Assembly (NCBI GenBank): GCA_965219995.1 | Contig: CBDCOX010000002.1 | Span: forward strand, 128,001 to 192,000 | Source: Candidatus Latescibacterota bacterium | Lineage (GTDB): Bacteria > Latescibacterota > UBA2968 > GCA-2709665 | DNA: 64,000 bases | Direction: 5' to 3' | The notes under the pieces: generated by a model | The model's input: only the letters and a program-made list of their open reading frames with translations | Told to the model about the DNA's origin: nothing | Database searches by the model: none | Shown: positions 276 to 43,875 of the stretch, piece after piece | Layout of the letters: every line of letters begins with the position of its first letter | Position numbering within the stretch: position 1 is the first letter of the stretch | Made by a program: the position numbers and the translations under genes

Positions 276-1487
276 TCAAGTCACTGTCGGACTTTCTGCC
301 AGAATACTGTCGACCGTGCAGAAGATTTCGCCGCTGGACAGGCGAACGCGGACCTGTTCGTCTTTCGCAAGCGAATCGGCCCGGGTGACCAGCGCGTTGT
401 CGTCGGCCCGATGCGTGAGGCTGTACCCCCGGCTAAGGACGGAGAGCGGGCTGAGCGCACCGAGTTCGACGGTGCGGCGCCGATACGAGTCCAGGCGCCG
501 ATCGAAACTGCGCCTGAGGCCGTTCTGAAGGCCCCTCTGAAGGTCGTCGACGGCCTGGATGTTCTGGAGGATGGTGTCTTCGACCTTACGCAATCCGTAC
601 CGGCCCATGTAGCCGCTGAGCAGGTCCTGGTTCTCTTTCAGATAGCGGTTCAGTGCGACGCAGGAACGCCTCGCAAGGTTTTGAATCCGGGCACGCAACT
701 CCTCGGCGTCGCGAACGGCCAGTTCGGCCGCCGCCGACGGCGTGGGAGCCCTGCAATCGGCGGCAAGGTCGGCCAGGGTGACGTCAACTTCGTGTCCCAC
801 GGCGGAGATTACGGGAATGCCGGAGCCGCAGATGGCGCGAACGACGACCTCGGTGTTGAACGCCGCCAGGTCTTCCACGGAACCACCGCCGCGACCCACG
901 ATCAGCACGTCGGCCTTGCCGTGCGCATTCAGCTCTTCGATGGCAAGCGCGATGTCTTCCGGTGCGCCGGCGCCTTGAACCAGCGTCGGCCGGAGTATGA
1001 TGTTGACACCGGGAAATCGCCTTTCCAACACATTCAGAATGTCCCGAATCGCCGCTCCCGTGCGGGACGTGGCCACACCGATCGACAGCGGGAAGGCCGG
1101 AAGCGCGCGTTTCCGCGCCTGATCGAACAGCCCTTCCTCCTGAAGCCTGCGCTTGAGCGCTTCCAGTGCGATCTGTTGCTGGCCGCTGCCGGCGGGGAAG
1201 AGCTGCGAGACGATCAGCTGGTACTCGCCGTTGCGTTCATAGACCGTAATCCGCCCTCTGGCGAGCACCTTGACGCCGGTTTCGGGCTGAAATGCCGGCG
1301 TCGCAGACCGCCACATCACGCACCGGAGCTGGCAGGTCCGGTCGATGAGGGTAAAGTAACGATGGCCCGAAGCCGCCTGGTTGTATTGGGATATTTCACC
1401 CACAATCCACAGGACGGGGAATTCCGCTTCGAGGTTTTTTCGGATTGCCTGCGTTATTTCTGTAACGGTATAGGGCCGTTCCGCCAC
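276..1487 (-). CDS. xseA: Exodeoxyribonuclease VII large subunit
   Basis: GEIS..SGHRYFTL OB fold, TSRTGAAIRD, GRGGGSVEDL, SAVGHEVD, APTPSAAAE, VLSRGYS. GTG at 1487 follows AGGAG. Confidence 0.96.
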   Translation of the reverse strand: MAERPYTVTEITQAIRKNLEAEFPVLWIVGEISQYNQAASGHRYFTLIDRTCQLRCVMWRSATPAFQPETGVKVLARGRITVYERNGEYQLIVSQLFPAGSGQQQIALEALKRRLQEEGLFDQARKRALPAFPLSIGVATSRTGAAIRDILNVLERRFPGVNIILRPTLVQGAGAPEDIALAIEELNAHGKADVLIVGRGGGSVEDLAAFNTEVVVRAICGSGIPVISAVGHEVDVTLADLAADCRAPTPSAAAELAVRDAEELRARIQNLARRSCVALNRYLKENQDLLSGYMGRYGLRKVEDTILQNIQAVDDLQRGLQNGLRRSFDRRLDSYRRRTVELGALSPLSVLSRGYSLTHRADDNALVTRADSLAKDEQVRVRLSSGEIFCTVDSILAESPTVT

Positions 1488-29883: not shown

Positions 29884-30780
29884 TCATCCGTCCGCCGGGC
29901 CCGGGTTTTCGTCCTGGAGCTCCCTTACGAATGCCGGGCTCAGGGCGCCCTGCGCGACCTCGGCCACGGGTCCCTTCATGGTCAGGCGGAAGTCGGGGTC
30001 GATCGCGACGTCGAGGGCGCCGCCCTGAGCGCAGACGGTTACCGGCGAATTCACCAGCCCCAGACGGACGGCCGCGCATGCGGCCGCGCAGGACGACGAT
30101 CCGGATGCCAGCGTTTCTCCCGCGCCGCGCTCCCAGATGAGAATGAAGATCTCGTTCGGGCCCGTGGGTACGGCCAATTGCACGTTGATTCGGTTTGGGA
30201 AGAGATCGTGATTCTCCAGGGCCGGTCCGAGTTCGAGCAGGTCGTCACGGGTCCACGTCTCGCTTGCGGGTCTGAAGATGACGCAGTGGGGGTTGCCCAC
30301 GCTGACGCCGGTGAATCTCAGATCGCGCCCCGCCGCTGCGATGGGACGTTGGATCAGCTCGTCCGCGTCCAGAGTGCAGGGCAGCGCATCGGGATTGAAA
30401 CTTGCCCGGCCCATTTCCACGGTTGCGAGGCTCGCGTCCCCGTGACGGTCCGGGTGGACCTCAATCTCCACGAGACCGCCCAGGGTATCAACCGTGAAGA
30501 TGATTTGCCGTGTTCTGTGCGTGGCATGCAGGAAGCGCGCGAAAATGCGCAGGCCGTTGCCCGATTTTTCGGCTTCGCTACCATCGGGATTGAAAATGCG
30601 AAGTCCGAAGTCCGCGCCGTTTCCGCGTTCCACGGTAAGGATGCCGTCCCCGCCGATGCCCAGGTTTCGGTTGCAGATCAGGCGGATATTCTTCGGGGTG
30701 AGCCTGAAGTCCAGGTCGGCCGGATCCATGACGATATAGTCGTTGCCGAGACCGTGGCCCTTATAGAATCCGTTCTTCAC
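29884..30780 (-). CDS. dapF: Diaminopimelate epimerase-like protein with Ser/Ser active site
   Basis: KGHGLGNDY, GIGGDG, NPDGSEAEKSGNG, VGNPHCV, FPNRINV, WERGAGETLASGSS. Confidence 0.85.
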   Translation of the reverse strand: MKNGFYKGHGLGNDYIVMDPADLDFRLTPKNIRLICNRNLGIGGDGILTVERGNGADFGLRIFNPDGSEAEKSGNGLRIFARFLHATHRTRQIIFTVDTLGGLVEIEVHPDRHGDASLATVEMGRASFNPDALPCTLDADELIQRPIAAAGRDLRFTGVSVGNPHCVIFRPASETWTRDDLLELGPALENHDLFPNRINVQLAVPTGPNEIFILIWERGAGETLASGSSSCAAACAAVRLGLVNSPVTVCAQGGALDVAIDPDFRLTMKGPVAEVAQGALSPAFVRELQDENPGPADG

Positions 30781-30860
30781 GGTACCCCCTGTAAACGTGA
30801 CGGCGGGGCCGGGCTGCGGGGCAGAAGACCGGCGATTCCGCAAACCGGCGCAGGCTGTTT

Positions 30861-31829
30861 TCACTTCCAGACGAGTACGACGCCCATCGTCTCCCCCAGA
30901 CGGGTATACAGCAAGTCGAACGCCTCCGCCGCCTCCTGGAAGGGAAAGCGGTGGGTGATCATGGCTTCGGCGTTGATCTTCTTCTCGCCAAGAAGCTTAA
31001 GGGCGCGGTCGGAGCCCTGCGATCGTTTGCCGCCGTCCGAATAACCGCCCACGATTCGACGTCCCTGGATCTTCCCCGAGTCGAGCGGCAATGGCTGGTC
31101 CTCGTACAAGCCGATCACCTGGATGAGGCCCTTTCGTTTCACCATATCCTGTGCCTGCGCGAAGGCGCCCGCGCCAGCGCGCCCGCCGACCGCTTCCACG
31201 ACGATATCCGCGCCCGCGCCGTCTGTCAGCCCTTTAACCGCCTTGACGGGGTCTTCGCTCGACGCGTCCACCACGTGGTCCGCCCCGAGACGTCCCGCCA
31301 GATCGCACCGGAGGGGCAGCGCGTCGACCGCGATCACGCGGGGGTTCGCCTCCGCGTTGAGCGCCTGCATACAGATGGAGCCCACGAGCCCCTGGCCCAG
31401 AATGGCCACCGTATCTTCCTCGCGGGCCTCGATTTCCCACATCCAGAGAACGGAACTGGTGCTCAGCGGCCAGAATGTCGCGGCTTCGGACGAAACCGCG
31501 TCCGGGAGATGCACGACCGGATCCTGGTGGCGTGAGCTCACGATTTCGACGGCCACGTATTCCGCGTGCGGCGCAATGGCCGCCACGCGGTCTCCGATAG
31601 AAAAGCCGTCCACCCGCGCGCCGACCGCCACGACGTCTCCCACGAACGAGTATCCCATGCTCTGATGGTCGATGGCTTCGGGTCGGATGTAGCGCCGCCA
31701 GATCTCGGAACCGCGGCTGATCAGACTGCATTCAGCGCGGATCAGCACCTCGGTGGGCGCGATTTCAGGTATCGGAACGTCTTCGATGACGATATTGTAC
31801 TCGCCTTCCGGCTTTGCAACACGTTTCAT
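30861..31829 (-). CDS. Medium-chain dehydrogenase/reductase, GYS subtype
   Basis: SLISRGSE, MGYS in place of GHE, GQGLVG Rossmann motif, GADIVVEAVG, ITHRFP. Confidence 0.85.
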   Translation of the reverse strand: MKRVAKPEGEYNIVIEDVPIPEIAPTEVLIRAECSLISRGSEIWRRYIRPEAIDHQSMGYSFVGDVVAVGARVDGFSIGDRVAAIAPHAEYVAVEIVSSRHQDPVVHLPDAVSSEAATFWPLSTSSVLWMWEIEAREEDTVAILGQGLVGSICMQALNAEANPRVIAVDALPLRCDLAGRLGADHVVDASSEDPVKAVKGLTDGAGADIVVEAVGGRAGAGAFAQAQDMVKRKGLIQVIGLYEDQPLPLDSGKIQGRRIVGGYSDGGKRSQGSDRALKLLGEKKINAEAMITHRFPFQEAAEAFDLLYTRLGETMGVVLVWK

Positions 31830-31876
31830 AACGGGATTCCCGAATTTGGAAAATTGAAGACTTCAGGCGCGGACGT

Positions 31877-32614
31877 TCAGTTCGCCGGCGTGAGGTCCTG
31901 GATATCGCGTCGATAGACCCATGTGCCCGCGCGGACGTAGTGAACGGCGAACGCCAGGCGGGGTCTGCCCCGGGACCGGTTCGCGTAAGACCCGTGGATG
32001 GTTCTGCCGGTAAAGAAGACCCCCGAGCCTCGCGGCACCGTAAGGAACGTGAGGTCATCCGGGCTTACGCCGGCGACTTCGTGCGAATGCATGGTTTCGG
32101 TCCACTCCATTCCGTCCGGCCCGCGCATGGCGTAGTCCTTCTCCCAGGAGGCGTGTTCCCTGCTGTCTTTCGGGGGCCGGGTTTCCCGGAGGGGGGCGAG
32201 GTGGCTGCCGGCGGCGACGCAGAGACCGCCGTTGTCTCTGTCCGTATCGTTCAACGCGAGCCAGCATGCCATGAGGGTGCCCGGTTCGTGCCGGATGTAG
32301 TGGGCGTCCTGGTGAAGCGCGATGCCGGTTCCGCCGGCCGGCGCCTTTGCCATGTACATGGTCTGGACGATCATCGGCCGTCCGCCCAGCAGCCGGGCCG
32401 CGACGCCGGCGATGCGGGGATGCGACGCCAGGTAACGCCATTGCGGGTCCGCGGTGTGCCTGCGCAGGCCGAGTTCCAGGACCTCCGGAGGCTTCGCTTC
32501 CGCCTGCGCCTGCAGGAAGGCGTCGATTTCACGCGGCGTCAGCAGACCGGGAACCTGAACGAAACCGTCCGTACGGTACGCTGCTTCCTGCTTCGGTGTC
32601 AGGGCGAGTCCCAT
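31877..32614 (-). CDS. PhyH-family Fe/2OG dioxygenase
   Basis: YRTDGF, LHQDAHY, DNGGLCVAAGSH, TIHGSYAN..R. Confidence 0.88.
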   Translation of the reverse strand: MGLALTPKQEAAYRTDGFVQVPGLLTPREIDAFLQAQAEAKPPEVLELGLRRHTADPQWRYLASHPRIAGVAARLLGGRPMIVQTMYMAKAPAGGTGIALHQDAHYIRHEPGTLMACWLALNDTDRDNGGLCVAAGSHLAPLRETRPPKDSREHASWEKDYAMRGPDGMEWTETMHSHEVAGVSPDDLTFLTVPRGSGVFFTGRTIHGSYANRSRGRPRLAFAVHYVRAGTWVYRRDIQDLTPAN

Positions 32615-32627
32615 CGCGGCTTTCGAT

Positions 32628-33572
32628 TCAGGTGAGGTCGCAGGGATTGGACCAGGCTTTCGTCCCGTCCGCTCCGATGACTTCGAATCGGACCCACCGT
32701 GCGCCCGGACGCAGGGTGAGCGTGGCGCTCGTAAAGGGTTTTTCCGAACTCCTGTACTCGGTACCGAACGTATCGCAGATGGCCAGGATACAACGGGATT
32801 CGGAGCATTCAACCGTGGCTTCCACCGGCCGTTTCCCGTCTTCGCTTCTGCGCAGGGTGATGTTTCGGATCTCGACGCCGGTGCTCGAATAGCTCGCGCC
32901 CCTTTCCAGCGCCTCGAGAATGGCCCCCGGTGAACGGTCCTTCACACGCACCATCGTCCAGCCGCCGTAGGTGTCGCGGTTTTCCGACTCGAGAGCGTGG
33001 GAGTCGTCGTTGGCCAGGGCGGGATACAGCCTGTTGCCCAGGTCCATCCAGTCATCCCAGTGAACGCCGGACTCACCCCGCCCCGCGCGCTGGCACGTTG
33101 TGTTGAAGACTTCCACGCCGGCAAATCCCTCGAGCGGCAGGGTGTCTCTGAGAATGTTCACCGAACTCCAGTACGGGTGGGCCAGCCACGTGCTGCCGCC
33201 CTGGTCCCGGACGGCGTCGATGACGTGCTGGGGCGGCATGGCCTCCGAGTCCAGGTCTTCGTGAATGTTCAGACAGAGAAAATGGTGTTTCTGCCCGCCG
33301 AAGGGATTGTCGGGATGCAGTTCGGCGCCCTGGATGAGCACAAAGTCTTCCGGACAGTCCACGGAGTCGATCCGGGTGATTCTGTAGTGGTCCGACAGAC
33401 AGAGAAAGTCATATCCCCGATTCACGTATCCGTCGAGGCGTTGCTGGGGCGATGCTCTGCCGTCGGAATTCGTCGTGTGGGAGTGGAGGTTGCCTTTCAG
33501 CCAGACGGAACCGTCGCCGGCATCCGGGCTGAAAGGATTTACGAGGTTGTGTTGCGGCGAATTGTCAGCCAT
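32628..33572 (-). CDS. PHP-domain metallohydrolase (CehA/McbA-like)
   Basis: WLKGNLHSHTTNSDG, LSDH, GAE, AHPYWS, EVFN, ANDDSH, KAWSNP. Confidence 0.85.
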   Translation of the reverse strand: MADNSPQHNLVNPFSPDAGDGSVWLKGNLHSHTTNSDGRASPQQRLDGYVNRGYDFLCLSDHYRITRIDSVDCPEDFVLIQGAELHPDNPFGGQKHHFLCLNIHEDLDSEAMPPQHVIDAVRDQGGSTWLAHPYWSSVNILRDTLPLEGFAGVEVFNTTCQRAGRGESGVHWDDWMDLGNRLYPALANDDSHALESENRDTYGGWTMVRVKDRSPGAILEALERGASYSSTGVEIRNITLRRSEDGKRPVEATVECSESRCILAICDTFGTEYRSSEKPFTSATLTLRPGARWVRFEVIGADGTKAWSNPCDLT

Positions 33573-33649
33573 GGAGACTCTCCGTAAGAATGTTGAAGGG
33601 TGTCGTCGAGGAGGAGTCCGCAATCCGTCCTGCCGACCCGCAACCCGCG

Positions 33650-34819
33650 TTACGTCCGGTCGACGATCGGCGGCAGGCCGGTTACGGGGCATGCCCGGGC
33701 GCCCCGGACCTCGTAACCCATGTCTTTGAGGATGCAGCTGATCTGGGATTCGAGCTTCAACAGATAGTCTTTTTCCTCGGCGCTCATGGTCTGCCGGGGC
33801 GGCCCTACGTCGAAACCGCGCACGGCCACACCGGTCTTGAAGCCCTCCGGGAAGTTCACGCCCAGCAGCATGAGGTTGATGAGGTCCAGTATGCGGTACT
33901 GCATGGTCTGTGCGTTCTTCAAATCGCCCGCAAGCGTCTTTTCGTAGATGTCCACGATGACTTCGGGAATGATGCCGGACGTCGCGATCGTGCCGCCGCT
34001 GGCGCCCATCATAACGGAAGGGCAGAGGATTTCTTCGCAGCCGACCAGGACCACGTACTCCGGACGCTGTTCGCGCAACCGGTGCATGGTGTTGATCAGC
34101 CTCGGCATGTCCCGGCTGGAGTCTTTGGTTCCCATGATGCGTTCGAACGGCAGCAGGCGTTCCATGACGTCCAGCGTGAGTTCCTGTGTGAATTGCGGAA
34201 TATTGTAGAGGAGGACGTCCAGAGGCGTCTGCCTGGCGATTTCCGCGAAGTATTCGAAGAGGCTGGTTTCCGAGATCTCGTAATAGTAGGGGGGGACCAG
34301 CGAAATGGCGTCGACGTCAATGCCCGCGTAGTATTCGCTCATTCTGAGCACGTCGCGCAGGTTGGCCTCGCTGGCGCCCGCAAGAACGGGCACGCGCCCC
34401 TGGTTGACGTTCGTGACAAGACGCACGACTTCCTTGCGCTCGTCGCTGGACAGGCGCACGAATTCGCCTGTGCTGCCATTGGGATACAACCCGTGGATGC
34501 CGGCTTCGATGAGCCAGTTGACGTAGCGCTCCATCTCGCCGTAATTGATGCGGGCATCGCTGTCGAAAATGACGATGTTGGGGCAGAAAATTCCCCTGAA
34601 TTCCCTCCGGGCGCCGGGGTTTCGGCGGTGGGGCGGCGCCGAAGTCCGCGAGCCGCCGGCTTCCGGCTCCTTTCTGGATACCTGCACCCGGTTGGCCGCA
34701 AGATAGTCCAGCGCCAGCGGCGTGAGCTTCGCCCGCGGGCAGATTTCGACCTCTCGCTCCGTGCCCAGTTTATCCTTGAGGAGCTGTTCGGTAACCACCG
34801 GATCGTCGATGCGTATCAT
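33650..34819 (-). CDS. DapA/DHDPS-family aldolase with BMC-associated N-terminal domain
   Basis: NGSTGEF, LLYNIP, GTKDSS catalytic motifs; N-terminal VVTEQLL..KLTPLALDYL domain plus linker. Confidence 0.85.
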   Translation of the reverse strand: MIRIDDPVVTEQLLKDKLGTEREVEICPRAKLTPLALDYLAANRVQVSRKEPEAGGSRTSAPPHRRNPGARREFRGIFCPNIVIFDSDARINYGEMERYVNWLIEAGIHGLYPNGSTGEFVRLSSDERKEVVRLVTNVNQGRVPVLAGASEANLRDVLRMSEYYAGIDVDAISLVPPYYYEISETSLFEYFAEIARQTPLDVLLYNIPQFTQELTLDVMERLLPFERIMGTKDSSRDMPRLINTMHRLREQRPEYVVLVGCEEILCPSVMMGASGGTIATSGIIPEVIVDIYEKTLAGDLKNAQTMQYRILDLINLMLLGVNFPEGFKTGVAVRGFDVGPPRQTMSAEEKDYLLKLESQISCILKDMGYEVRGARACPVTGLPPIVDRT

Positions 34820-34858
34820 GGCTTTCCCCGGGAGACGGACAGGGCATTCGGCGGCGGA

Positions 34859-36022
34859 TCAGTGGATCAGCCGCTCTTCCAGTGCGGGAAAGGGGTGCGG
34901 AATGAGATGGGCCGACACGAGTTCACCGTACCTCTCCGCTTCCTCGGCCCCGACTTGCAGGGCGGTGCGCACCGCGCCGACGTCTCCCCGGACAACGCTT
35001 GCCGTGAGAAAGTACCCGACCTTGTATCGACCCTCGAATTCCACGTCCGCGGACTTCAGCATCTGATCCACGGCTTTGACCAGGGCCACGGTACTGCGCG
35101 TCTCGATCAGACCCATGGCCTGATTCCCGCTCGTGGCTCTTACGGCCTCGCTTCGGCCGAAACAGGCCATGATTTCGGAAGACGGACGGGAAACGACACA
35201 GGATGCATTCAATTCTCCGGCCTCCTGCGCGCCGTCGACACCGGCGTCGACGGCCGCCTGGACGGCGTCCAGGCGGCCTTTCACCAGTGCGTCCACCCGG
35301 CCTCCGCTGGCGATGACAAGGCGCACGAGGTCGACGTCCGCCGCTTTGACCATGGCGTCGGAACCGCCGACCGCGCTGGCGTAACCCGTTGTTTCAAGCA
35401 CACCGAGCGCACCGGCGTCCGCCCGGGGTCCGTTTGAAACCGGTGGTCCCGGAAGCAGCGGCTCGACGCCCGCCTCCGGCCTCGGAATCATAAGGGTCGC
35501 GTAAACTTCCCCGACCTCATCGGCACACGCTTTGCCGGCCTGCAGGGCAGTCTGGACCGATGAAATGTCGCCCCGGACCACGAGATGAACCAGCGCGCCG
35601 CCAACGGACGTCCAACCGGCGACGCGAACGGGCGCGCTTTTGACCATCGCGTCGGCGCCGCGGATGAGGGGTACCATGCCCCGCGTTTCGAGGATGCCCA
35701 TCGCCCCCGCGCCGAACGGGCCTGTCGTGACCGCGTCCGTCCTGTGCGGCATGGACTCGAGGGCGCCCGGGACCGGTCCCGCGATAACGTCGGCGGTGAT
35801 CAGGTCGCCGTGGTTTACGGCTTCGGATCGTCCGGCTCGAATGGCGGCCTCAACTTCCGATACGACGCCTTCGATTACAACCGTCAACCAGCCCGATCCC
35901 ACGCCGTGACGTCCCAGAACCCGAACGTCCACGGTCTTCAGCATGGCGTCCACGGCCGCGACAAGCGCGGTCATGCCGCGGGTTTCCAGAATGCCCAGGG
36001 CGTGATTTCGCGGGGGCGCCAC
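34859..36022 (-). CDS. BMC shell protein with four tandem PF00936-like domains
   Basis: Four ~97-aa repeats starting ALGILETRG, AMGILETRG, ALGVLETTG, AMGLIETRS, each with D-x-M-x-K (DAMLK, DAMVK, DAMVK, DQMLK). GTG at 36022. Confidence 0.9.
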   Translation of the reverse strand: MAPPRNHALGILETRGMTALVAAVDAMLKTVDVRVLGRHGVGSGWLTVVIEGVVSEVEAAIRAGRSEAVNHGDLITADVIAGPVPGALESMPHRTDAVTTGPFGAGAMGILETRGMVPLIRGADAMVKSAPVRVAGWTSVGGALVHLVVRGDISSVQTALQAGKACADEVGEVYATLMIPRPEAGVEPLLPGPPVSNGPRADAGALGVLETTGYASAVGGSDAMVKAADVDLVRLVIASGGRVDALVKGRLDAVQAAVDAGVDGAQEAGELNASCVVSRPSSEIMACFGRSEAVRATSGNQAMGLIETRSTVALVKAVDQMLKSADVEFEGRYKVGYFLTASVVRGDVGAVRTALQVGAEEAERYGELVSAHLIPHPFPALEERLIH

Positions 36023-36027
36023 GGCGC

Positions 36028-36585
36028 TCAGGGACCGAATGCCCGCAGGACGTCGGGCAATGGTCTGGTGATGAGGGCGGCGCCCAGGAAGTTCTCGCCG
36101 GCCTCGACGCTCGTGCGGCCCACGGGCAGGGCTTCGGTCACGGAAGCCACGTCGCCAAGTATCAGGGAGCAGACCACCCGGTTGTGTACGGTGAGCACGT
36201 TGTAGACCTGGACGTCGGCCGCCTTCACCATTTTGTCGTTGGCGGTGACGTGGGCGCCATATCCTCTCGTTTCGATCATACCCAGCGCTCCGGACGGTGT
36301 CCGCCGTGGGGATGCGACTGCATTCGAGACGTATTCCCTGCAAACGGGTTCAGGATGCGTCATTGGCGCCGCCACGACGTGGTCCGCCACCTCTTTGGCC
36401 GCCTGTTCCCCGCTCCTGAGCGCCGTTGCCACGCGGCTGATGGATCCGCCGAAGAAAACGGTGGTGAATCCACCGATGGACTCCCAACCCAGAAGATCCA
36501 CGCCAGCGGCTTTGCAGGCCGCGTCCGACGCCAGAATAATCCCGGCGACGCCTTCGACTTCGATCATGCCGATCGCTGCTGACAT
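36028..36585 (-). CDS. BMC shell protein with two tandem domains (BMC-T-like, non-permuted)
   Basis: AIGMIEVEG..DAACK and ALGMIETRG..DKMVK..GDVASV..RP. Confidence 0.9.
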   Translation of the reverse strand: MSAAIGMIEVEGVAGIILASDAACKAAGVDLLGWESIGGFTTVFFGGSISRVATALRSGEQAAKEVADHVVAAPMTHPEPVCREYVSNAVASPRRTPSGALGMIETRGYGAHVTANDKMVKAADVQVYNVLTVHNRVVCSLILGDVASVTEALPVGRTSVEAGENFLGAALITRPLPDVLRAFGP

Positions 36586-36690
36586 GCTTCCATCCAGGTG
36601 CAGTTAGACCAAACGGCCCGGATCGATCGAATCAATCCGCCAAACGGGATACCGGTCCGGCCAACGTCAAGGGCCATCGCCGGACGGCGC

Positions 36691-39111
36691 TCAGAACAAC
36701 AGTACCGAGACGGCCTTCTGGATCATGGCAATAGACACGGAGGCCATGCCCACCAGGGACATTCCCACCGAGAATCCGACGTACAACACGGCGGCATAGA
36801 GTCGCCACTGCTGTCTGCCGAAGCGCTTCCAGAAATAGTACCGCGCCAGGAGCGCGCCGATGATCTCCGTGACCATGATGTGGGGGATGTTGGTCAGACT
36901 CCGTATGTACCCGAAGATCAGCAGCACCGGCAGGCCCAGGACGGACAGAACCACGAACGAGACCAGGCCGACGGCGAGTCCGATGGCGATCACGACCGGC
37001 TTGATGGCCTCGAACAGGATCGGCTCGTCGTCCGAACTCTGCAGAAAGGAACCGTCGAAGGAGGGCACCTGGTCCACTTCGAACTGATAGACGAGGTCCC
37101 GCCCCTCAGGATCCCGTGCGGCGAGTACGACCAGGTTGGGGTTGGGGTTGTCCGCATGGCTTCCGTCATCGGGACTCCGCAACGCCGGCGCCGAAGGCAG
37201 GCCCAGCCGCAACGCTTCGGAAATGTCCGGCGCCGACCGGTCCACCGGAAGCGGCGGCACGAGCGGCTTTTCGGTGCTCTTGAAGTTCGTATAAAAATAC
37301 CCAACGCGGGACCACGGTCCGTAAGTGCGTTGTTCATGTTCTGCAATTTGCGCGTCGGCCGACGCTCGGGCACGCCAGTACCACCAGTTGCCGTCGGGCA
37401 GATTGCTCGGCTGGAAGGACACCGTTCCGGAGGACGGGTCGTGCTCGACCTCGCCCTGCATGGTGCCGGTGTACCAGACGCTGCTCTGGAGCGCCCGCAG
37501 CGGCCACATCATCTGGACGTAGGGGTAGGAGGAAGAGGGAATGGGCGCCAGCTTCCAGATATAGGACCAGTACATGAAACTGGTCAGAAGGATCAGCGGG
37601 ATCATGAAGATCTCCGCCTTCAGGATCCCCGTGAATTTCGAGCCTGTGAGTTCAATCTGACGGAAAGTTTCAGCCTGCGCGCCCCAGTTGGCCAGGGGAA
37701 ACGGCACAAACCAGATTTCGATCCCCTTGAACCCGCTCAGAAAGATCGTGGCTTCCCTGATATAGGGAATATTGACGTTCTGTCCGACCAGCCCGTCCAG
37801 CCGCGCGTTGACGAAGGAGATCAACGGCGTATAGATAAACGCGAAGACGAAAAAGAAGATGAGCAGCACGGTGCTCACGAGGTCAGGGAAGAGGACCTTG
37901 GCGAGGATTATAGTGTACAGGCTGGCAAGACTGAAGAGTACGACGCAGATCCAGATCCGGAAGTCTCCGCGACCGCGCGGCGGCGTCCAGCTTCCCTTTT
38001 CTTTTTTCTCCACCCGGGCGGTACGAACCCCGGTCCAGACCTGGTAGAATCCGATAATTGCGATGGCGAAGGTGATGCCGATCCCGAAGCTCATCCAGAA
38101 ATCGATGCCCGTGACGAAGTGGGTCATGATGGTATCCATGCCCATATACCAGTTCGGCATGTACCCGTAGGAATACAGGATGGGGCCCGCCGCGGTGTGG
38201 ATGGCGACGCCGATGAATGCGCCCATGACGGCCCAGAAGGGCGCCAGCAGCCCTGCAAAGATGGGGGCCAGGTGCAGCGTGAAGCCCAGCGGCGTGGCCG
38301 GCAGAAAATATCCCGTGTACTGGGTGAAATCCACCCACGGGATGGGGATGAGCTGAAGCGGCTGTTCCATGAACGCGCCGGAAATGGCGGGTACGGCCAC
38401 GTAGACCGACCCGAAAACGACGCCGATCACGGCCCCGATGCTGAATACCCGCCAGCGCCAACTGTACTGACCGCTGCTTTCTTCGGCAAGCGCCATGGCG
38501 CCCTGGGCATTGATGGGCGCGAACGGAAAGGGCAGGCGTTCGTAGTCGGACGTGATGCGGAAGAGCACGTAACTGGCCGTGAACCACTGGATACGCCCCA
38601 TGATCATTCCCAGGACGAGCAGGGAGATGGGGAGCAGCCAGTCCTGATGAAGGAAGGTGCGGTCGATCAGTGCGGGAGAGTCGGGAGGAGGCGCCCACCA
38701 GCGGGGAATGAGGTGGGAGATGCCGAACTGCTTGGCGGCCGGAGACTGAACGTAATATTGCTGCCATAGCAGGCCTTCGAACATCCCGGTTTCGCGGGCG
38801 ACCAGTGCGCTGGTGACGTAGTAGAGCAGGTAAAGTTCCTGCTTCTTAAGCACCGTGAACGAGCGCTTGGCCAGTTCCAGGAACAGAATGATCGTCACCC
38901 ACTGGGCCGCGGCGCCGACGGAATGTCCCACCATGAGTTCCAGGTAGATGTTGCCCGGAACCATAATGACGGAAACGAAGAGAGCACCGAGAATGGTCTT
39001 GGAGTTGAATCCCTCTTCGAATTCCTCGGGGACTTCGAGCAGATCCCGATATTCTTCGATTTCCTGGTAAGGATTGGTTTTCCGCCTGCGAATTCGATCG
39101 AGAAAGGCCAT
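36691..39111 (-). CDS. OPT-superfamily-like 'peptide transporter' with soluble FN3/Ig-like insertion
   Basis: Polytopic membrane protein with EEYRDLLEVPEEFEEGF, AAQWVTIILF, ERLPFPFAP, LAPIPSSSYPY; ~145-aa soluble insert. Confidence 0.7.
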   Translation of the reverse strand: MAFLDRIRRRKTNPYQEIEEYRDLLEVPEEFEEGFNSKTILGALFVSVIMVPGNIYLELMVGHSVGAAAQWVTIILFLELAKRSFTVLKKQELYLLYYVTSALVARETGMFEGLLWQQYYVQSPAAKQFGISHLIPRWWAPPPDSPALIDRTFLHQDWLLPISLLVLGMIMGRIQWFTASYVLFRITSDYERLPFPFAPINAQGAMALAEESSGQYSWRWRVFSIGAVIGVVFGSVYVAVPAISGAFMEQPLQLIPIPWVDFTQYTGYFLPATPLGFTLHLAPIFAGLLAPFWAVMGAFIGVAIHTAAGPILYSYGYMPNWYMGMDTIMTHFVTGIDFWMSFGIGITFAIAIIGFYQVWTGVRTARVEKKEKGSWTPPRGRGDFRIWICVVLFSLASLYTIILAKVLFPDLVSTVLLIFFFVFAFIYTPLISFVNARLDGLVGQNVNIPYIREATIFLSGFKGIEIWFVPFPLANWGAQAETFRQIELTGSKFTGILKAEIFMIPLILLTSFMYWSYIWKLAPIPSSSYPYVQMMWPLRALQSSVWYTGTMQGEVEHDPSSGTVSFQPSNLPDGNWWYWRARASADAQIAEHEQRTYGPWSRVGYFYTNFKSTEKPLVPPLPVDRSAPDISEALRLGLPSAPALRSPDDGSHADNPNPNLVVLAARDPEGRDLVYQFEVDQVPSFDGSFLQSSDDEPILFEAIKPVVIAIGLAVGLVSFVVLSVLGLPVLLIFGYIRSLTNIPHIMVTEIIGALLARYYFWKRFGRQQWRLYAAVLYVGFSVGMSLVGMASVSIAMIQKAVSVLLF

Positions 39112-39235: not shown

Positions 39236-42200
39236 TCAGACCGGTTTCGAGTCCTGTTCGTCCGATACGAGTATCCGCAGGCCCTTCTCCCTGTACGCCG
39301 CCTTCTCGGCGGGGTCGACGGTCCTCCAGATGAGAAACTGTTTGCGCAGGGCGTTCATGAAGCCCTGGTTGACCCGTCGCCATGAGGCGACTTCCCCCGA
39401 ACGTCGCCTGAGGGTGAGCGTCAGTGTGTAGATGTCGAACTGGCCGGTGGGTTCCGCCTCGAAGCGCAACTCCTCGCTCACGCCCAGGTCGAAGGGCGCA
39501 AGCCACAGGGTCGTGCGGATCGCGTATCCCCTCTCGCCGTCGCTCCCCTTCCCGTACAGTTGGGCGCCGTCCGTATAAAACGCCCCCATCGCTTCGCCAC
39601 TGTGAGAGTCGAAGTAGTCTGTGAGAAATACACAGAGCCCGAATACATCGTTTCCACCGACGGTAAAGGGGAATTCGAAACGCCAGTCATCGCCGTCGGG
39701 CTCCGGAATTTTCCACCGGCGGGACACGTCCGGTACAGCCATCAGCGACGCCTGCCTGGCGGGATAGAGGGTGGACAGGATGACCACGGCCATGACCAGG
39801 GCGGACGAGGCAACCGCGGACCGGGCGGAGTAGTTGAGCGAGACGCCGGAGAGCAGGTCCTGCCAGAGCAGCAGCTTGGCAACGCCCTGGCCCATCAGAT
39901 AACCGCTTACCGTGCCGAGGACCGCATAGACGCAGGCTTCGGCGATAAAGAGAAAGGCGACGTGGACCGGCGCAAGGCCCACCGCGGAATAGACGCCGAT
40001 TTCCCGAAACCGTTCGTACACGGATCCCATCATTGTATTCAGCACGATGAGCGAAGCGATGAGGATAGGAATAAAGAGATGGCTCAACCCGCGACTCGAC
40101 GTGTCTCCGAGCGAGCTGAAAACCGAGACGTTGATGCGCCCTTCCGGATCCGGAAGGCCTGCAAAGAGCACGACCGACAGCCTGGAGAGGAGTTCCTTTA
40201 CATAGCTCTCCACGTCTGATCCGGCATCGAATCGGAGTGCGACCGACTGGAGCGGGCTGCCCACCTGACGCAGGAACCTGTACGGTACGATCAGGATATC
40301 GTCGGGGTTGATGTGCTCGAAGGGCATGATTTCGACTTCCGGCTGTTCCAGGCCCTGTTTCTCCCGCGTTTCCTGTGTGGTCATCTGTTCGATGGCTTCC
40401 TCGTCGGTAAGCTTGAAGTCAGCGGGACTGAGGGGTTCCTCGTCAAGGTCCTTGAGCTCGCTGAATGCCCCGGCGTCGATCAGTCCGATCACCGGCAGCG
40501 ATTCCCCGAACACCCGGACGCTGGACGCCTCCGGTCGCCCGGGGTCAACGCCGAGGAGTACCGCGATCTTTTCCGGCAGGATGCACGCGGATTCGCCCGG
40601 ACGGAACCACCGACCGGCCTTGAGGGTCCGGTGGACGCCGGTCACGTCCGGCTCCCGGGGCGTCATTCCCAGGACGCCGAGTACGTGTGCTGAGCCGTTT
40701 TCGGACTCCACGGGGATAATCTTCTTTTCCCGGGTATAGTACCAGCTTCTCGGTGCGGCTATTGCGGATTCTCCGAAGTGGGTGACGGCGTAATCGTAGA
40801 CCACGTCTTCCAGCGGGCCCCAGAACTTGCTCCGGATGAGCATTCCGGGGTACGGACCCTCCGTGCCTATGGGAATCCGGCGGAATTCGAGAGCCGACTT
40901 GATGGATGTGAACGACAGTACGGTAAACGTGAGGAGCAGGAGCGTGGTGAACGTAAGCACCGTGCGAAGTTTGCGGCGTTTCATGTTTGCGATGCCGAGT
41001 TGGAAGGCGGCCAGAGAGGCGGAGATTCGCCCGACGTCGGTCTCGTGCAGCAGGACGTCCGGGACCCGTAACCGGCGCATGGTTTCATTGAAACGATTGA
41101 ATACAAGGGAGATCACGAAGGCCGCCAGCGCCAGAATCACGAACGCGAGCAAAACCACCAGGGGGTTGGAGATTTCGAATGCCGGATGCACGTTTGAAAG
41201 AAAAAGCCAGATGAGCACAAAGATGCCGATAAATCCAGCGATCTGTCTTCGGATATCCACGGCGGTAATGATGAGGCGTTCGGTGAAGAACGCACACGGA
41301 ATGACCAGGGCCATGAAGAAGACGACGCCGCGTACCACGTCATTCTGCGTATCTTTGACGTCGGGATAGGCGCGCGATTCGATGCCGAGCGCCGCGCGGG
41401 TGTGCTTCATGAAGACGTCCCAGCGCTTTTCCGACATGGCGTCCTCTGCCCTGTGCAGGTGGTGGCGGGTGCGGCTGTGCAGCATGTTCAGACGCTGGTT
41501 CTCGATGGCGTATTTCTGCATCTCCTGCTTCCGTGCCTCGTTCAGCGTCCACATATCCCTTGCGGCCAGAAACGAGGTGCGCGCAAACGACCCGTGCGTC
41601 AGCGTGGGGTAACCCGTGCCCCGTGCGATTTCTTCATTCTCGGCGCTCTGTGCGTTCAGCAGCAGGAACCGGATGCCGATGTCGCCGGAGCCCGCGGCGA
41701 CGCCGCCGGCCCTCATGGCGACTTTGACCCTCTCTCCCGGACGCGTGAACAGGGTGCCCACGGGTTCAGTGGGGCCGAAGCCGATCGCGTAACCGTATTC
41801 CTGCGGCGTGACGTTGCCGCTGCCGTAGACGCTTATCTGGGAGAGCTTCGTCAGATAACGCGGATCGACGGTATCGTAAAAGTCGGTGGCGATGCACGGG
41901 AACAGAATGATATTTCGTTTCGAGATCCACCAGTCCATGTCGAAGTCGCCCCGATAGATACGCGCCTGCTGCCCGTAATTGGGGGCGTAGGTAATCTCTC
42001 CGGTCTCCGGATCCTGAAAGTAGGCGCTGACGGAGACGCGGCGTTCGGCAATCCCGGGCATGTAGAATTCACCGTTCTCGTCGGCCAGGTCGTAATAGAT
42101 GCGCCGGACGCCCTTGACCGATTTGTCGATGCCCATCCGGAGCGCGGCGATGGCCCCGGCCTTGGGCCGGTCCGGGACGATACTGCGCCTGGGAAAGGTA

Positions 42201-43771
42201 CGTACGAACCCCTTCAGGCCGCGCATGCGGTCATCGGGATTGAGTCGATAGTCGGGGATGAGCGTCGGGTCGTTCAGGGCAATGTCGAGTACGCCCGTAA
42301 TCAGGCGGACCTGTTTTGCGAGGTTTTCAAAGTTCATCCCGTCCGGTGTGTCCAGGGGCGTATCGACCCGGAAGCGTGCGTCGTTCAATGTGACCAGGGA
42401 CAGGGCGAGGGTGCCGGCTTCGAGGACGACTTCTCCGTCGGTCTTCAGGTTTGCGCCGGGGATGAACATATCCCAGGTCATTCCACCGGTGGGGTTGATG
42501 CCGTCCAGCAGCGCCTGGTTCGGATCGAGACCGAAAGCCGGTGCGATCGCCTGCGAGATGCGGACGAATTCCTTGCCGAACGGTGTGAAGAACCGGTTGT
42601 AGTAGAAGTTGCGCGTGCTGTTCCAGACACCGATCTGAGCGGTCTGGCTCGACAGGTCCAGGCCGATGAAGAGACGAATATCTATGGGGTCGGTCATCAG
42701 GGCGGCGAAGTGCCTTTCCTTTCTGGCGTGGCGGCCCAGAAAATCGCAGATGCCGCGAAAGCCCAGGTGGTGGGCCGAAGTGGCCAGAAAGAGTACCGTG
42801 CGCCCCGGGGGATATCGCTTGAAGTAGTTGACCAGTTCCAGAAGGGCGACGGCGCCGCCTGCCATCTCGGCGCCGGGGGCAAGCGCGGGGACGACGGACA
42901 TGGCGTCGTAGTACGCGTTGATCACGACGATCTGTTCCTTCAGGTCCGGATCCGTACCCGGAAGGAAACCCAGGATGTTGTGGGCGGTGTGTTTCTCCCA
43001 CTCCATTCTCGCCTTCAGTTCGATTTCAAGTTCGCCGCGACGTTCAAGCAGCGTCTTCAGAGCCTGTCCCGACTCTTTGTCGATCCAGAATCGTTCCACG
43101 CTGTTCGGCACTTGCAGAAATTTCTGCTCGGCTTCGGTATAGAACGTCGAATCGGGTTCAATGAAGATGATCTGCCCCGCCCCCAGGGTGGCCGCGTTCA
43201 GCCAGTTGTTCCGGGTGTTGAATTCCATGAGAACGGCCGCGCCTTCGAGCGCATGACCGTTGAAGTCGGCGAATTCCCCGGTTGCCCCGTAGATCAATCG
43301 CGTGCGGACCCCTTCCCGCGGCAGTGTGGAGGTCTTGACGAGGTTCGGCCAGATCGCGTGGATGGGAAGCGTGACATTGTCCCGCAAAAGCGTCAGGCTG
43401 CCGCCCAGGTCGACGGGCGAGGTGACGTCGAACGGCTCGGCGCGGACGTCCTGGAGACCGGCGTTTTCGAAACTTCGCCGGATGTACCCGGCGGCGGCCG
43501 CGTGTCCGGAGTAGCCGGGAACTCGTGACCGGTGCTCCGTAAAGCGCGCAACGTGCGCCCTCACGCCGGCGTCCGATACGGTATCGAGCACGCGAGCCGA
43601 AGTCGCGCTCGCTTCGGGAACAGACGCGGGGGGCGCGGAAGCGGGCACTTTCAGACCCAGCAGGGCGGCGAGGTAGGGGTTGACGCGGTCCGGTCCAACC
43701 GCCAGGCAGAAGAATGCGGCAGCGGTGAGCAAGAGCGTCAGGACGAGTCCGATGTTTCGGACGTTGTTCAT
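39236..43771 (-). CDS. FtsX/MacB-like ABC permease fused to PA and M28-peptidase-like periplasmic domains
   Basis: N-terminal SRVPGYSGH, HNILGFLPG, NAYYD; C-terminal ANMKRRKLRT, VYERFREIGVYSAVG, FIAEA (FtsX motifs). Start MNNVRN. Confidence 0.8.
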   Translation of the reverse strand: MNNVRNIGLVLTLLLTAAAFFCLAVGPDRVNPYLAALLGLKVPASAPPASVPEASATSARVLDTVSDAGVRAHVARFTEHRSRVPGYSGHAAAAGYIRRSFENAGLQDVRAEPFDVTSPVDLGGSLTLLRDNVTLPIHAIWPNLVKTSTLPREGVRTRLIYGATGEFADFNGHALEGAAVLMEFNTRNNWLNAATLGAGQIIFIEPDSTFYTEAEQKFLQVPNSVERFWIDKESGQALKTLLERRGELEIELKARMEWEKHTAHNILGFLPGTDPDLKEQIVVINAYYDAMSVVPALAPGAEMAGGAVALLELVNYFKRYPPGRTVLFLATSAHHLGFRGICDFLGRHARKERHFAALMTDPIDIRLFIGLDLSSQTAQIGVWNSTRNFYYNRFFTPFGKEFVRISQAIAPAFGLDPNQALLDGINPTGGMTWDMFIPGANLKTDGEVVLEAGTLALSLVTLNDARFRVDTPLDTPDGMNFENLAKQVRLITGVLDIALNDPTLIPDYRLNPDDRMRGLKGFVRTFPRRSIVPDRPKAGAIAALRMGIDKSVKGVRRIYYDLADENGEFYMPGIAERRVSVSAYFQDPETGEITYAPNYGQQARIYRGDFDMDWWISKRNIILFPCIATDFYDTVDPRYLTKLSQISVYGSGNVTPQEYGYAIGFGPTEPVGTLFTRPGERVKVAMRAGGVAAGSGDIGIRFLLLNAQSAENEEIARGTGYPTLTHGSFARTSFLAARDMWTLNEARKQEMQKYAIENQRLNMLHSRTRHHLHRAEDAMSEKRWDVFMKHTRAALGIESRAYPDVKDTQNDVVRGVVFFMALVIPCAFFTERLIITAVDIRRQIAGFIGIFVLIWLFLSNVHPAFEISNPLVVLLAFVILALAAFVISLVFNRFNETMRRLRVPDVLLHETDVGRISASLAAFQLGIANMKRRKLRTVLTFTTLLLLTFTVLSFTSIKSALEFRRIPIGTEGPYPGMLIRSKFWGPLEDVVYDYAVTHFGESAIAAPRSWYYTREKKIIPVESENGSAHVLGVLGMTPREPDVTGVHRTLKAGRWFRPGESACILPEKIAVLLGVDPGRPEASSVRVFGESLPVIGLIDAGAFSELKDLDEEPLSPADFKLTDEEAIEQMTTQETREKQGLEQPEVEIMPFEHINPDDILIVPYRFLRQVGSPLQSVALRFDAGSDVESYVKELLSRLSVVLFAGLPDPEGRINVSVFSSLGDTSSRGLSHLFIPILIASLIVLNTMMGSVYERFREIGVYSAVGLAPVHVAFLFIAEACVYAVLGTVSGYLMGQGVAKLLLWQDLLSGVSLNYSARSAVASSALVMAVVILSTLYPARQASLMAVPDVSRRWKIPEPDGDDWRFEFPFTVGGNDVFGLCVFLTDYFDSHSGEAMGAFYTDGAQLYGKGSDGERGYAIRTTLWLAPFDLGVSEELRFEAEPTGQFDIYTLTLTLRRRSGEVASWRRVNQGFMNALRKQFLIWRTVDPAEKAAYREKGLRILVSDEQDSKPV

Positions 43772-43875
43772 AGGGAGTTCACGTCGGGATCTACCGAATC
43801 CCGGCATCCTGTCGGCGGCGGCGATTCAATCCGTACAACGGGCCCGATGAAGCGGGAACCGCCCGTCGCCGTCGT

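Follow-up and report, generated by a model that had tools for sequence, protein, structure and literature searches.

The shell tiles of bacterial microcompartments (BMCs) that are described in the searchable part of the literature are homo-oligomers of one- or two-domain chains. Their symmetry imposes a pore built from six identical loops or from three copies of two, and edges that are equivalent or alternate. Here we describe a pair of adjacent shell genes whose products would depart from this scheme. The genes lie in a stretch of 64,000 nucleotides (hereafter the window) from Candidatus Latescibacterota bacterium (GenBank assembly GCA_965219995.1, contig CBDCOX010000002.1, positions 128,001 to 192,000 of the forward strand). 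Gene A encodes a short chain with two BMC domains (D1 and D2) and gene B a long chain with four (D3 to D6). Sequence comparison and structure modelling suggest that the two products probably assemble in a 1:1 ratio into a putative asymmetric pseudohexamer.

Among described systems, the BMC-T(s) proteins (PduT, CcmO and Haliangium BMC-T1) share with the pair their non-permuted PF00936 domains, short linkers, a pseudohexamer of the size of a BMC-H hexamer and the edge lysine; indeed, the product of gene A taken alone has exactly this format. However, a BMC-T(s) tile consists of three identical two-domain chains (C3 symmetry) with a pore of three times two loops, whereas A and B together would provide two unlike chains and six positions. 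The best match of B in the Protein Data Bank (PDB), in both structure and sequence, is 6NER, a synthetic Haliangium ochraceum BMC shell containing a tandem fusion of BMC-H. From this structure it is clear that BMC-H-type domains can be fused and still tile a shell, but it is engineered, with two identical domains per chain and a homotrimeric assembly, whereas B is natural, has four diverged domains and would need a second chain. Finally, CcmK3 and CcmK4 of beta-carboxysomes form heterohexamers of single-domain subunits, the stoichiometry and order of which are not known to be fixed by covalent linkage. In these, as proposed for A and B, a hexagonal tile arises from more than one gene product and has a pore that is not six-fold identical; in A and B, by contrast, two chains would fix the order of all six positions.

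The accessible text of the 2021 catalog of BMC loci distinguishes hexagonal building blocks of five kinds and presents trees for six groups of shell proteins (P, H, Hp, Ts, Tdp and Tsp), and its methods mention that 'problematic sequences' were pruned (PMC8217296). BMC chains with three, four or six domains, or a tile made of two chains, are undescribed in the searchable full texts, including the available parts of PMC8217296, PMC4207490, PMC8007038 and PMC4454575; the supplements of the catalog may list such genes under BMC-T(s).

Results

Two adjacent genes encode six non-permuted BMC domains

Gene A occupies positions 36028–36585 on the minus strand and encodes 185 amino acids (protein P0002), running from an ATG at 36585 to a TGA at 36030–36028. 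Gene B lies downstream on the same strand at 34859–36022, starts with a GTG at 36022 and encodes 387 amino acids (P0001). The spacer between the TGA of A and the GTG of B, read directly from the sequence, comprises 5 nt (gcgcc; 36023–36027, minus strand). The frame of gene B is open further upstream, to a TTG at 36343, but this extension overlaps gene A and contains no domain, while a start at the next ATG (residue 17) would cost the first beta-strand. In relatives, gene B begins 3–8 residues ahead of that strand, as it does with the GTG at 36022.

Scanning with the PF00936 profile (cut-off 24.5 bits) revealed two stretches in A (E 1e-31, 109.1 bits) and four in B (E 1.2e-78, 259.5 bits). The domains of both proteins score above the gathering score, which places them in the PF00936 superfamily. 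Since the best stretches are colinear with the profile, running in order over its positions 1–75 and 1–71 of 75, the domains are not permuted. In keeping with this, neither chain has the features of the permuted classes BMC-H(p), BMC-T(sp) and BMC-T(dp), and the AlphaFold2 (AF2) model of B repeats the canonical order of strands and helices four times. The chains are also unlike BMC-H, which has one PF00936 domain in about 90–120 residues, and the two domains per chain that define BMC-T(s) are found in A but not in B; the pair as a whole has six domains on two chains. The inter-domain linkers, one in A and three in B, are uniform, extending about 12–14 residues past the C-terminal helix.

An earlier note on this DNA had described two genes 5 nt apart with two and four non-permuted BMC domains, and had proposed the profile scan as a check. 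Translations and scan bear the description out, and the gene pair is real as written. The D-x-x-x-K edge motif that it had seen in all six domains, and the six differing pore loops that it had listed (ESIGG, TVHNR, HGVGSG, TSVGG, IASGG and YKVGY), are likewise present in the translations.

The two genes are conserved side by side

Orthologues of gene B (E≤1e-40) are present in 83 of the 168 genomes of the phylum and those of gene A in 84. The two sets of genomes are identical except for G095, in which A lies at the end of a contig in a 980-contig assembly. By eye comparison of the coordinate tables, 82 of the 83 genomes have A immediately upstream of B and on its strand, the only other arrangement being that of G123, where the genes are on separate contigs of a 660-contig assembly. 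None of the 83 B-bearing genomes lacks A.

We then considered 43 fetched loci, made up of 13 from genome contigs (L012–L024) and 30 from GTDB (L092–L121), two sets that partly overlap in genomes. At the level of open reading frames (ORFs), 12 of the former and all 30 of the latter have the 2+4 layout. The remaining locus, L024, reads as 2+3+1, with a shift of frame inside the D5–D6 linker, so that the domains sum to six in 43 of 43 loci. Because the same layout recurs in 42 of the 43, it is not a product of chance or assembly. More distant loci (67; L025–L091, mostly Clostridia) contain one- and two-domain ORFs only. The earlier note had suggested a survey of this kind, and had reasoned that four-domain homologues commonly found away from a two-domain gene would speak against a shared tile; no four-domain gene without an adjacent two-domain gene occurs in the 43 loci, and the survey of genomes agrees. 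Beyond these loci, clustering at 90% leaves gene B with at least 250 relatives, of which the best 120 are 366–424 residues long and 54–95% identical, and gene A has 435, the best 120 being 183–212 residues long. For many of these matches, the longest contig has the same length for A as for B.

The junction between the genes is tight. Across the 13 related loci the stop of A and the start of B range from an 8-nt overlap (GTGTCTAG), through TGATG, to a gap of up to 10 nt. Such spacing is consistent with translational coupling, as the earlier note had supposed, and coupling this tight would help to fix a 1:1 ratio of the two proteins. Measured from the envelope of D3, the stop of A lies between −2 and +24 nt (median 18) in every one of the 43 loci.

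These data also bear on whether the split might be an artefact of annotation or assembly, or the remains of a decaying gene, such that A and B are really one interrupted six-domain gene. What could suggest this is that the two ORFs share a frame and are separated by a single stop codon in seven of the 43 loci (L017, L103–L106, L108 and L112); readthrough of that codon to give a six-domain chain is conceivable there. In the other 36, however, A and B are in different frames, and the stop always lies at the D2|D3 boundary. Since the relative frames vary in this way among the loci, the gene split is real and old. Furthermore, the layout persists among genomes ranging in identity from about 96% to about 49%, single-contig chromosomes included, and mean column identities of 61–66% in the alignments of A and B, together with invariant motifs, point to strong constraint on both proteins. 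An artefact or decayed gene is thus already contradicted by the conservation data, and can hardly be credited.

Each of the six positions is a separate class of domain

Over 13 genomes, domains at the same position are on average 62–72% identical, compared with 24–39% between positions, and in a tree of the domains each position forms one side of a branch (SH-aLRT 94–100). We assessed invariance and conservation of the pore loops in alignments of 32 sequences each of A and B. The lysine of the edge motif D-x-x-x-K serves tile–tile contacts, and all six edge lysines (K25 and K121 in A; K29, K128, K226 and K323 in B) are invariant in these alignments.

Around this common feature the positions differ. 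D1 (36370–36576, minus strand; 164370–164576 on contig C2 of the genome, G000) resembles the first domain of BMC-T and carries the loop GWESIGG, conserved as GWeSiGG, with G33, W34, G38 and G39 invariant besides K25. D2 (36061–36288, minus; C2 164061–164288) is similar to the second BMC-T domain; its loop NVLTVHNRVVC is conserved as nVLTVhnRVVC, and V133 and R136–C139 accompany the invariant K121. In gene B, all on the minus strand, the BMC-H-like D3 (35774–36001) has the loop GRHGVGSGW, conserved as GRHGvGSGW (invariant K29, G37, H39 and G42). It is followed by D4 (35477–35704), like a first BMC-T domain, with GWTSVGG in the window and GWafIGGAL in the family (invariant K128, G136, W137 and G141). 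D5 (35183–35410), like a second BMC-T domain, has RLVIASGGR, with rlxigsGGR as its conserved form (invariant K226, G240, G241 and R242), and finally the BMC-H-like D6 (34892–35119) bears GRYKVGYF, conserved as GsYKVGYf (invariant K323, G331, K334 and G336).

A second feature of the tile edge is the motif IPRPH with its canonical Arg-Pro. This Arg-Pro is kept at 90% or more in D3 and D5 only, so the six edges differ as well; in the D3 of the window itself, a Gly takes the place of an Arg found in at least 90% of the family. On the evidence of these alignments and the tree, each of the six positions is a separate orthologous class with its own pore loop.

The domain order suggests duplication of a BMC-T and BMC-H gene pair

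In another family of the phylum, a gene pair encoding BMC-T (185 residues) and BMC-H (87 residues) lies upstream of the module formed by A, B and a downstream aldolase gene (see below). In L018–L021 and L024 the BMC-T gene (about 185 residues) is immediately followed by the BMC-H gene (87 residues), 0.5–4.4 kb upstream of the 2+4 pair. In L023, L107–L109 and L113–L121 an upstream BMC-H alone was seen, the flanks of the GTDB loci reaching only 1.5 kb; the upstream two-domain ORF in L023 is 426 residues long. The three types of domain found in A and B have their closest paralogues in these upstream T and H genes.

We compared the six positions with the first (T1) and second (T2) domains of BMC-T and with BMC-H (H). 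In profile scores D1 and D4 fit T1 best, D2 and D5 fit T2, and D3 and D6 fit H (six of six, with margins of 3–21 bits), and the motifs flanking the pore repeat the same pattern with a period of three (GW.., r/nV.., G[RQs]..). In two trees D2, D5 and T2 grouped together with supports of 92 and 88, D5 being sister to D2. D3, D6 and H grouped with a support of 89 in the first tree, and in the second the tree constrained to this grouping exceeded the likelihood of the free search (p 0.599 in the approximately unbiased (AU) test). D1, D4 and T1 were not resolved as a group in the first tree and had a support of 70 in the second.

From these comparisons the favoured ancestry is one in which a [T][H] gene pair was duplicated in tandem to T-H-T'-H', after which H-T'-H' fused into the four-domain chain. 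This route would explain why the gene boundary lies at D2|D3, and why the extra split in L024 lies at the homologous D5|D6 boundary. An origin with a period of two, from three copies of BMC-T, is less likely, its log-likelihoods being 14.7 and 16.4 worse.

A structure model closes a ring of six domains

The AF2 monomer model of B, built from 32 sequences, has a mean predicted local distance difference test score (pLDDT) of 91.3 and a predicted template-modelling (TM) score of 0.89, and contains four canonical BMC folds. When it was compared with the PDB by Foldseek, chains of 6NER came top (TM 0.90–0.93 normalised on the target, root-mean-square deviation (rmsd) 1.9–4.5 Å, about 183–193 columns). 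Adjacent domains of B are 37–42% identical to 6NER, and the A1 profile matches 6NER at E 9.5e-52. Unlike 6NER, the chains of PduT and BMC-T1 superpose on the model of B over one domain only, with a TM of about 0.43 and an rmsd of about 15–17 Å. The 6NER superposition implies that at least one pair of adjacent B domains is arranged like ring neighbours in that structure, although a match of this kind identifies the fold and cannot show a ring. Among the 60 listed of 63 matched PDB sequences there is no solved chain with more than two BMC domains.

The earlier note had proposed predicting the structure of the 1:1 pair, and we modelled one A with one B in ESMFold2, using our own alignments of the two. 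The complex reached an ipSAE (a score of interface confidence) of 0.74 (0.60, 0.75 and 0.74 in individual runs), compared with 0.00 for the best of three controls. As a rough guide, given the use of our own alignments, 58 of 80 solved complexes attain 0.74, as do 2 of 110 mismatched pairs. The runs share at least 98% of their contacts, with a pLDDT of at least 87 in the partner. Residues 9–93 of B (D3) contact residues 107–185 of A (D2), and residues 309–366 of B (D6) contact residues 7–85 of A (D1), the expected error in the placing of D3 and D6 against A being about 2 Å. With contacts at D2–D3 and D6–D1, the ring D1-D2-D3-D4-D5-D6 is closed in the model, which supports binding between A and B but does not show it.

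These results are consistent with a mechanism in which chains A and B jointly make up a single hexagonal shell tile, A giving D1–D2 and B giving D3–D6. One copy of each would close the six-domain ring as a heterodimer of about 60 kDa. The resulting pseudohexamer would be without internal symmetry, with six different loops round one pore and six non-equivalent edges, all of which have the edge lysine. The earlier note had put forward just such a 4+2 pseudohexamer with an asymmetric pore. Co-occurrence, adjacency, coupling, the six classes, the uniform linkers and the ring-closing model all speak for it, short of proof.

Several points weigh on the other side. The controls for the model were unrelated proteins, neither other BMC proteins nor a homotrimer of A, and since BMC hexamers and BMC-T trimers have been solved in large numbers, the score of the complex may reflect likeness to these. 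Chain A has the look of an ordinary BMC-T, and its sequence contains nothing at odds with a homotrimer. The AU test does not reject the period-two alternatives for the ancestry (p 0.17 and 0.18), and the 3+1 split in L024 may be a frameshift error in a metagenome-assembled genome. Finally, the cleanest genetic proof, a fused six-domain chain (about 575 residues), is unseen among the matches listed, that is, the best 120 of 250 matches (212–678 residues) and the best 150 of the representatives at 50% identity; P0161, which at 569 residues has about the right length, contains only two BMC domains.

Some of these points would fit a different arrangement, in which A and B assemble apart. In this case A would form a BMC-T homotrimer, while three copies of B, with 12 domains, would form two linked pseudohexamers, face to face as in BMC-T(dp) or adjacent in the facet, and the genes would be neighbours only through a shared operon. 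In the accessible text of the catalog (Sutter 2021, PMC8217296), tandem BMC proteins are described as homotrimers and in no other state, A is of normal BMC-T length (185 residues) and weakly matches the models of CcmO and PduT, and, 12 being divisible by six, B alone could in principle close rings. The model of the complex, set against unrelated proteins, may also be reconciled with separate assembly. However, the period-three ancestry makes B an H-T1'-T2'-H' chain rather than two BMC-T halves, so D3D4 and D5D6 are not BMC-T-like pairs, which weakens this alternative; the ancestry is favoured, though not statistically decisive. Also, the three linkers of B and the one of A are alike, which does not suggest a special link between rings, B occurs without A in none of the 83 genomes, and in the model D3 and D6 abut A. 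We therefore regard separate assembly as unlikely, and a ring shared by A and B as the better account.

Other shell genes lie at a metabolosome locus 2.2 Mb away

The whole genome contains eight PF00936 matches, namely the six in A and B and two single BMC-H genes at C2:2393402 and C2:2399933. Between these, at C2:2393692–2396083, are three PF03319 pentamer (BMC-P) genes. This main locus (C2:2386000–2405000; L122) is 2.2 Mb from the window, and its genes are, in order, BMC-H, BMC-P, an aldehyde dehydrogenase (PF00171), two BMC-P, a class II aldolase (PF00596), an acetate kinase (PF00871), an ORF with PF07494 (Reg_prop) and BMC-H. Upstream of the first BMC-H is a 496-residue ORF without a Pfam match. 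Scanning of 10 ORFs of the locus identified no PduL-type phosphotransacylase. The combination of PF00596 and aldehyde dehydrogenase beside BMC-H and a BMC-P triplet is that of a locus like the Planctomycetes and Verrucomicrobia microcompartment (PVM). Given PF00171, PF00596 and the acetate kinase, we take the main locus to be a PVM-like metabolosome and the A/B pair to be its satellite shell locus; the tile would then belong to the metabolosome that has its remaining shell genes (two BMC-H and three BMC-P) and its core enzymes at that distant locus. Shell genes at two sites and three BMC-P genes can also be set beside the FRAG type, described in the accessible text of the catalog as shell genes scattered over several sites with a BMC-P triplet (Sutter 2021, PMC8217296), bearing in mind that the catalog assigns types by hidden Markov models of its own.

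The presence of two BMC-H paralogues in the genome raises another way to complete a ring. B might recruit two BMC-H subunits from the main locus, or variable partners, into a mixed or dynamic tile, with A an independent BMC-T. D3 and D6, which would flank the gap, are themselves BMC-H-like, and CcmK3 and CcmK4 are BMC-H paralogues that reportedly form heterohexamers (attributed to Sommer, 2019). Against this, the BMC-H genes are 2.2 Mb away, while A, present in all 83 B-bearing genomes, is joined to B by a junction of −8 to +10 nt in all relatives examined. In addition, D1 and D2 each form a conserved class with a pore loop of its own. Completion of the ring by BMC-H is thus quite improbable, more so than separate assembly, and A remains the expected partner of B.

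A DHDPS-family aldolase travels with the shell gene pair

Directly downstream of gene B, at 33650–34819 on the minus strand, is a gene for a class I aldolase of the DHDPS/NAL family (389 residues; PF00701 at E 1e-56 over residues 74–361). It is found directly downstream of B in 13 of 13 loci from genome contigs, with 68–96% identity, and downstream in 27 of the 30 GTDB loci. Outside the close relatives the aldolase is better conserved than the shell genes, with 68–76% identity against 49–63%. The protein consists of a conserved N-terminal region of about 48 residues (MIRIDDPVVT...KLTP.A.D.L), a variable linker of Pro, Ala, Ser and Gly, and the catalytic domain. Seven NCBIfam families match the aldolase and none reaches its cut-off as an equivalog, so no substrate is assigned.

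The N-terminal domain has no Pfam match and no PDB sequence match at E≤10. A possible identity as PF15953 (PDU_like) was set aside and the domain was not named, the Atlas lead being sub-threshold (0.77; 12% of the cluster members carry PF15953). In the three GTDB loci that have no downstream aldolase (L107, L110 and L111), what matches is a homologue of this N-terminal domain alone. The homologue immediately precedes gene A in L107 and L110. In L107, the one locus of the three whose ORFs were listed, it is carried on a small Cys-rich ORF (335–925, plus strand); in that locus an ORF resembling FAD-oxidoreductases comes after the four-domain gene. Because its homologue persists beside the pair in loci that lack the aldolase, the N-terminal domain travels with the tile.

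The putative tile is thus part of a three-gene module with an aldolase that bears a conserved N-terminal domain on a flexible linker, and the aldolase is a probable cargo or partner enzyme of the tile. In the pore, the His, Asn and Arg of D2 and the Lys and Tyr of D6 flank the short loop of D1, and the asymmetric pore may pass the anionic substrate of the aldolase or pyruvate.

Contigs from three runs recorded as metatranscriptomic (X18–X20) extend over portions of each of the three genes, with a likeness of about 91–98% depending on the piece; the parts of the stretch that they leave uncovered are uninformative. Two of them, from X18 (1497 nt, 35087–36583) and X19 (35744–36624), bridge the A/B junction at about 93–94% likeness, and another from X18 (34484–35091) bridges B and the aldolase. 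As a caution on the side of the doubts set out above, contigs from RNA libraries prove neither transcription nor a single transcript, and are a weak hint of expression. Runs labelled as sponge, coral and marine metagenomes (X5, X7, X10, X12 and X14–X20) contain between 0.06 and 0.63 of the words sampled from 33650–36700, with 0.63 and 0.44 in two runs labelled sponge metagenome.

Further downstream of the aldolase, at 29884–33692 on the minus strand, are genes for a CehA/McbA-family metallohydrolase (PHP-like, 354 residues), a PhyH-family dioxygenase and a Zn-dependent alcohol dehydrogenase, and a 326-residue ORF. These are kept beside the module in the close relatives L012–L017 only, and not in L018–L024. 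Upstream of the pair are an 806-residue protein (36691–39111, minus strand), which has no Pfam or NCBIfam match and reads as hydrophobic, and a 1523-residue ORF (39236–43807, minus strand), both conserved at 87–98% in L012–L017 only.

Three-domain proteins divide six differently

A search of representative sequences yielded 14 natural BMC proteins of 283–330 residues with three domains (P0131, P0133–P0138, P0141, P0142, P0144, P0157, P0158, P0176 and P0179), three PF00936 domains being confirmed in the six that were scanned. Their domains are non-permuted and keep the D and K columns of the edge, and the names of their clusters include Dehalococcoidia and Calescamantes. In seven metagenome loci (L123–L129) a single three-domain gene has no other BMC gene in reach. 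L138 contains two adjacent three-domain genes (3+3), and L141 is nearly identical with a disrupted first gene. As in the 2+4 pair, the number of domains per chain is non-canonical and yet divides six or adds up to it, and the proteins presumably form a homodimer or a 3+3 heterodimer. With three-domain genes and a 3+3 pair at hand, other partitions of six domains evidently exist in nature. We considered whether these proteins could represent a T1-T2-H intermediate on the way to the 2+4 pair, but dropped the idea, as their domain classes do not follow that order and they form a separate lineage. Our search of full-text literature found no description of three-domain BMC proteins.

Discussion

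The arrangements described above raise the possibility of an unrecognised class of tile, in which six non-equivalent PF00936 domains are spread over one to three chains, as 2+4, 2+3+1, 3+3 or a pairing of three-domain chains. We put this broader proposal forward tentatively, with less assurance than the 1:1 pairing of A and B. Under it the 2+4 form would be a C1 tile with a unique pore and one defined orientation, acting as a gate or dock for the aldolase, the N-terminal domain of which would bind 1:1. The predicted pore combines Gly-rich loops with the conserved His, Asn and Arg of D2 and the Tyr and Lys of D6. Since the six edges differ, with the canonical Arg-Pro in D3 and D5 only, the tile could take up a single defined orientation within the shell.

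Members of the family are common in Latescibacterota and Gemmatimonadota, with 83 of 168 genomes and at least 250 protein clusters at 90% identity. The pair also suggests that surveys assigning shell proteins to the classes H, T and P may overlook or discard those with many domains. The hypothesis is directly testable, as it concerns two small soluble proteins. If correct, a fixed order of six domains would free the tile from the constraints of homo-oligomeric symmetry, allowing an asymmetric pore, six edges that can be tuned individually and one unique binding surface on each tile. Such properties are what shell engineers try to build by means of synthetic fusions, and the best PDB match of B is itself engineered; in these bacteria they may have arisen naturally.

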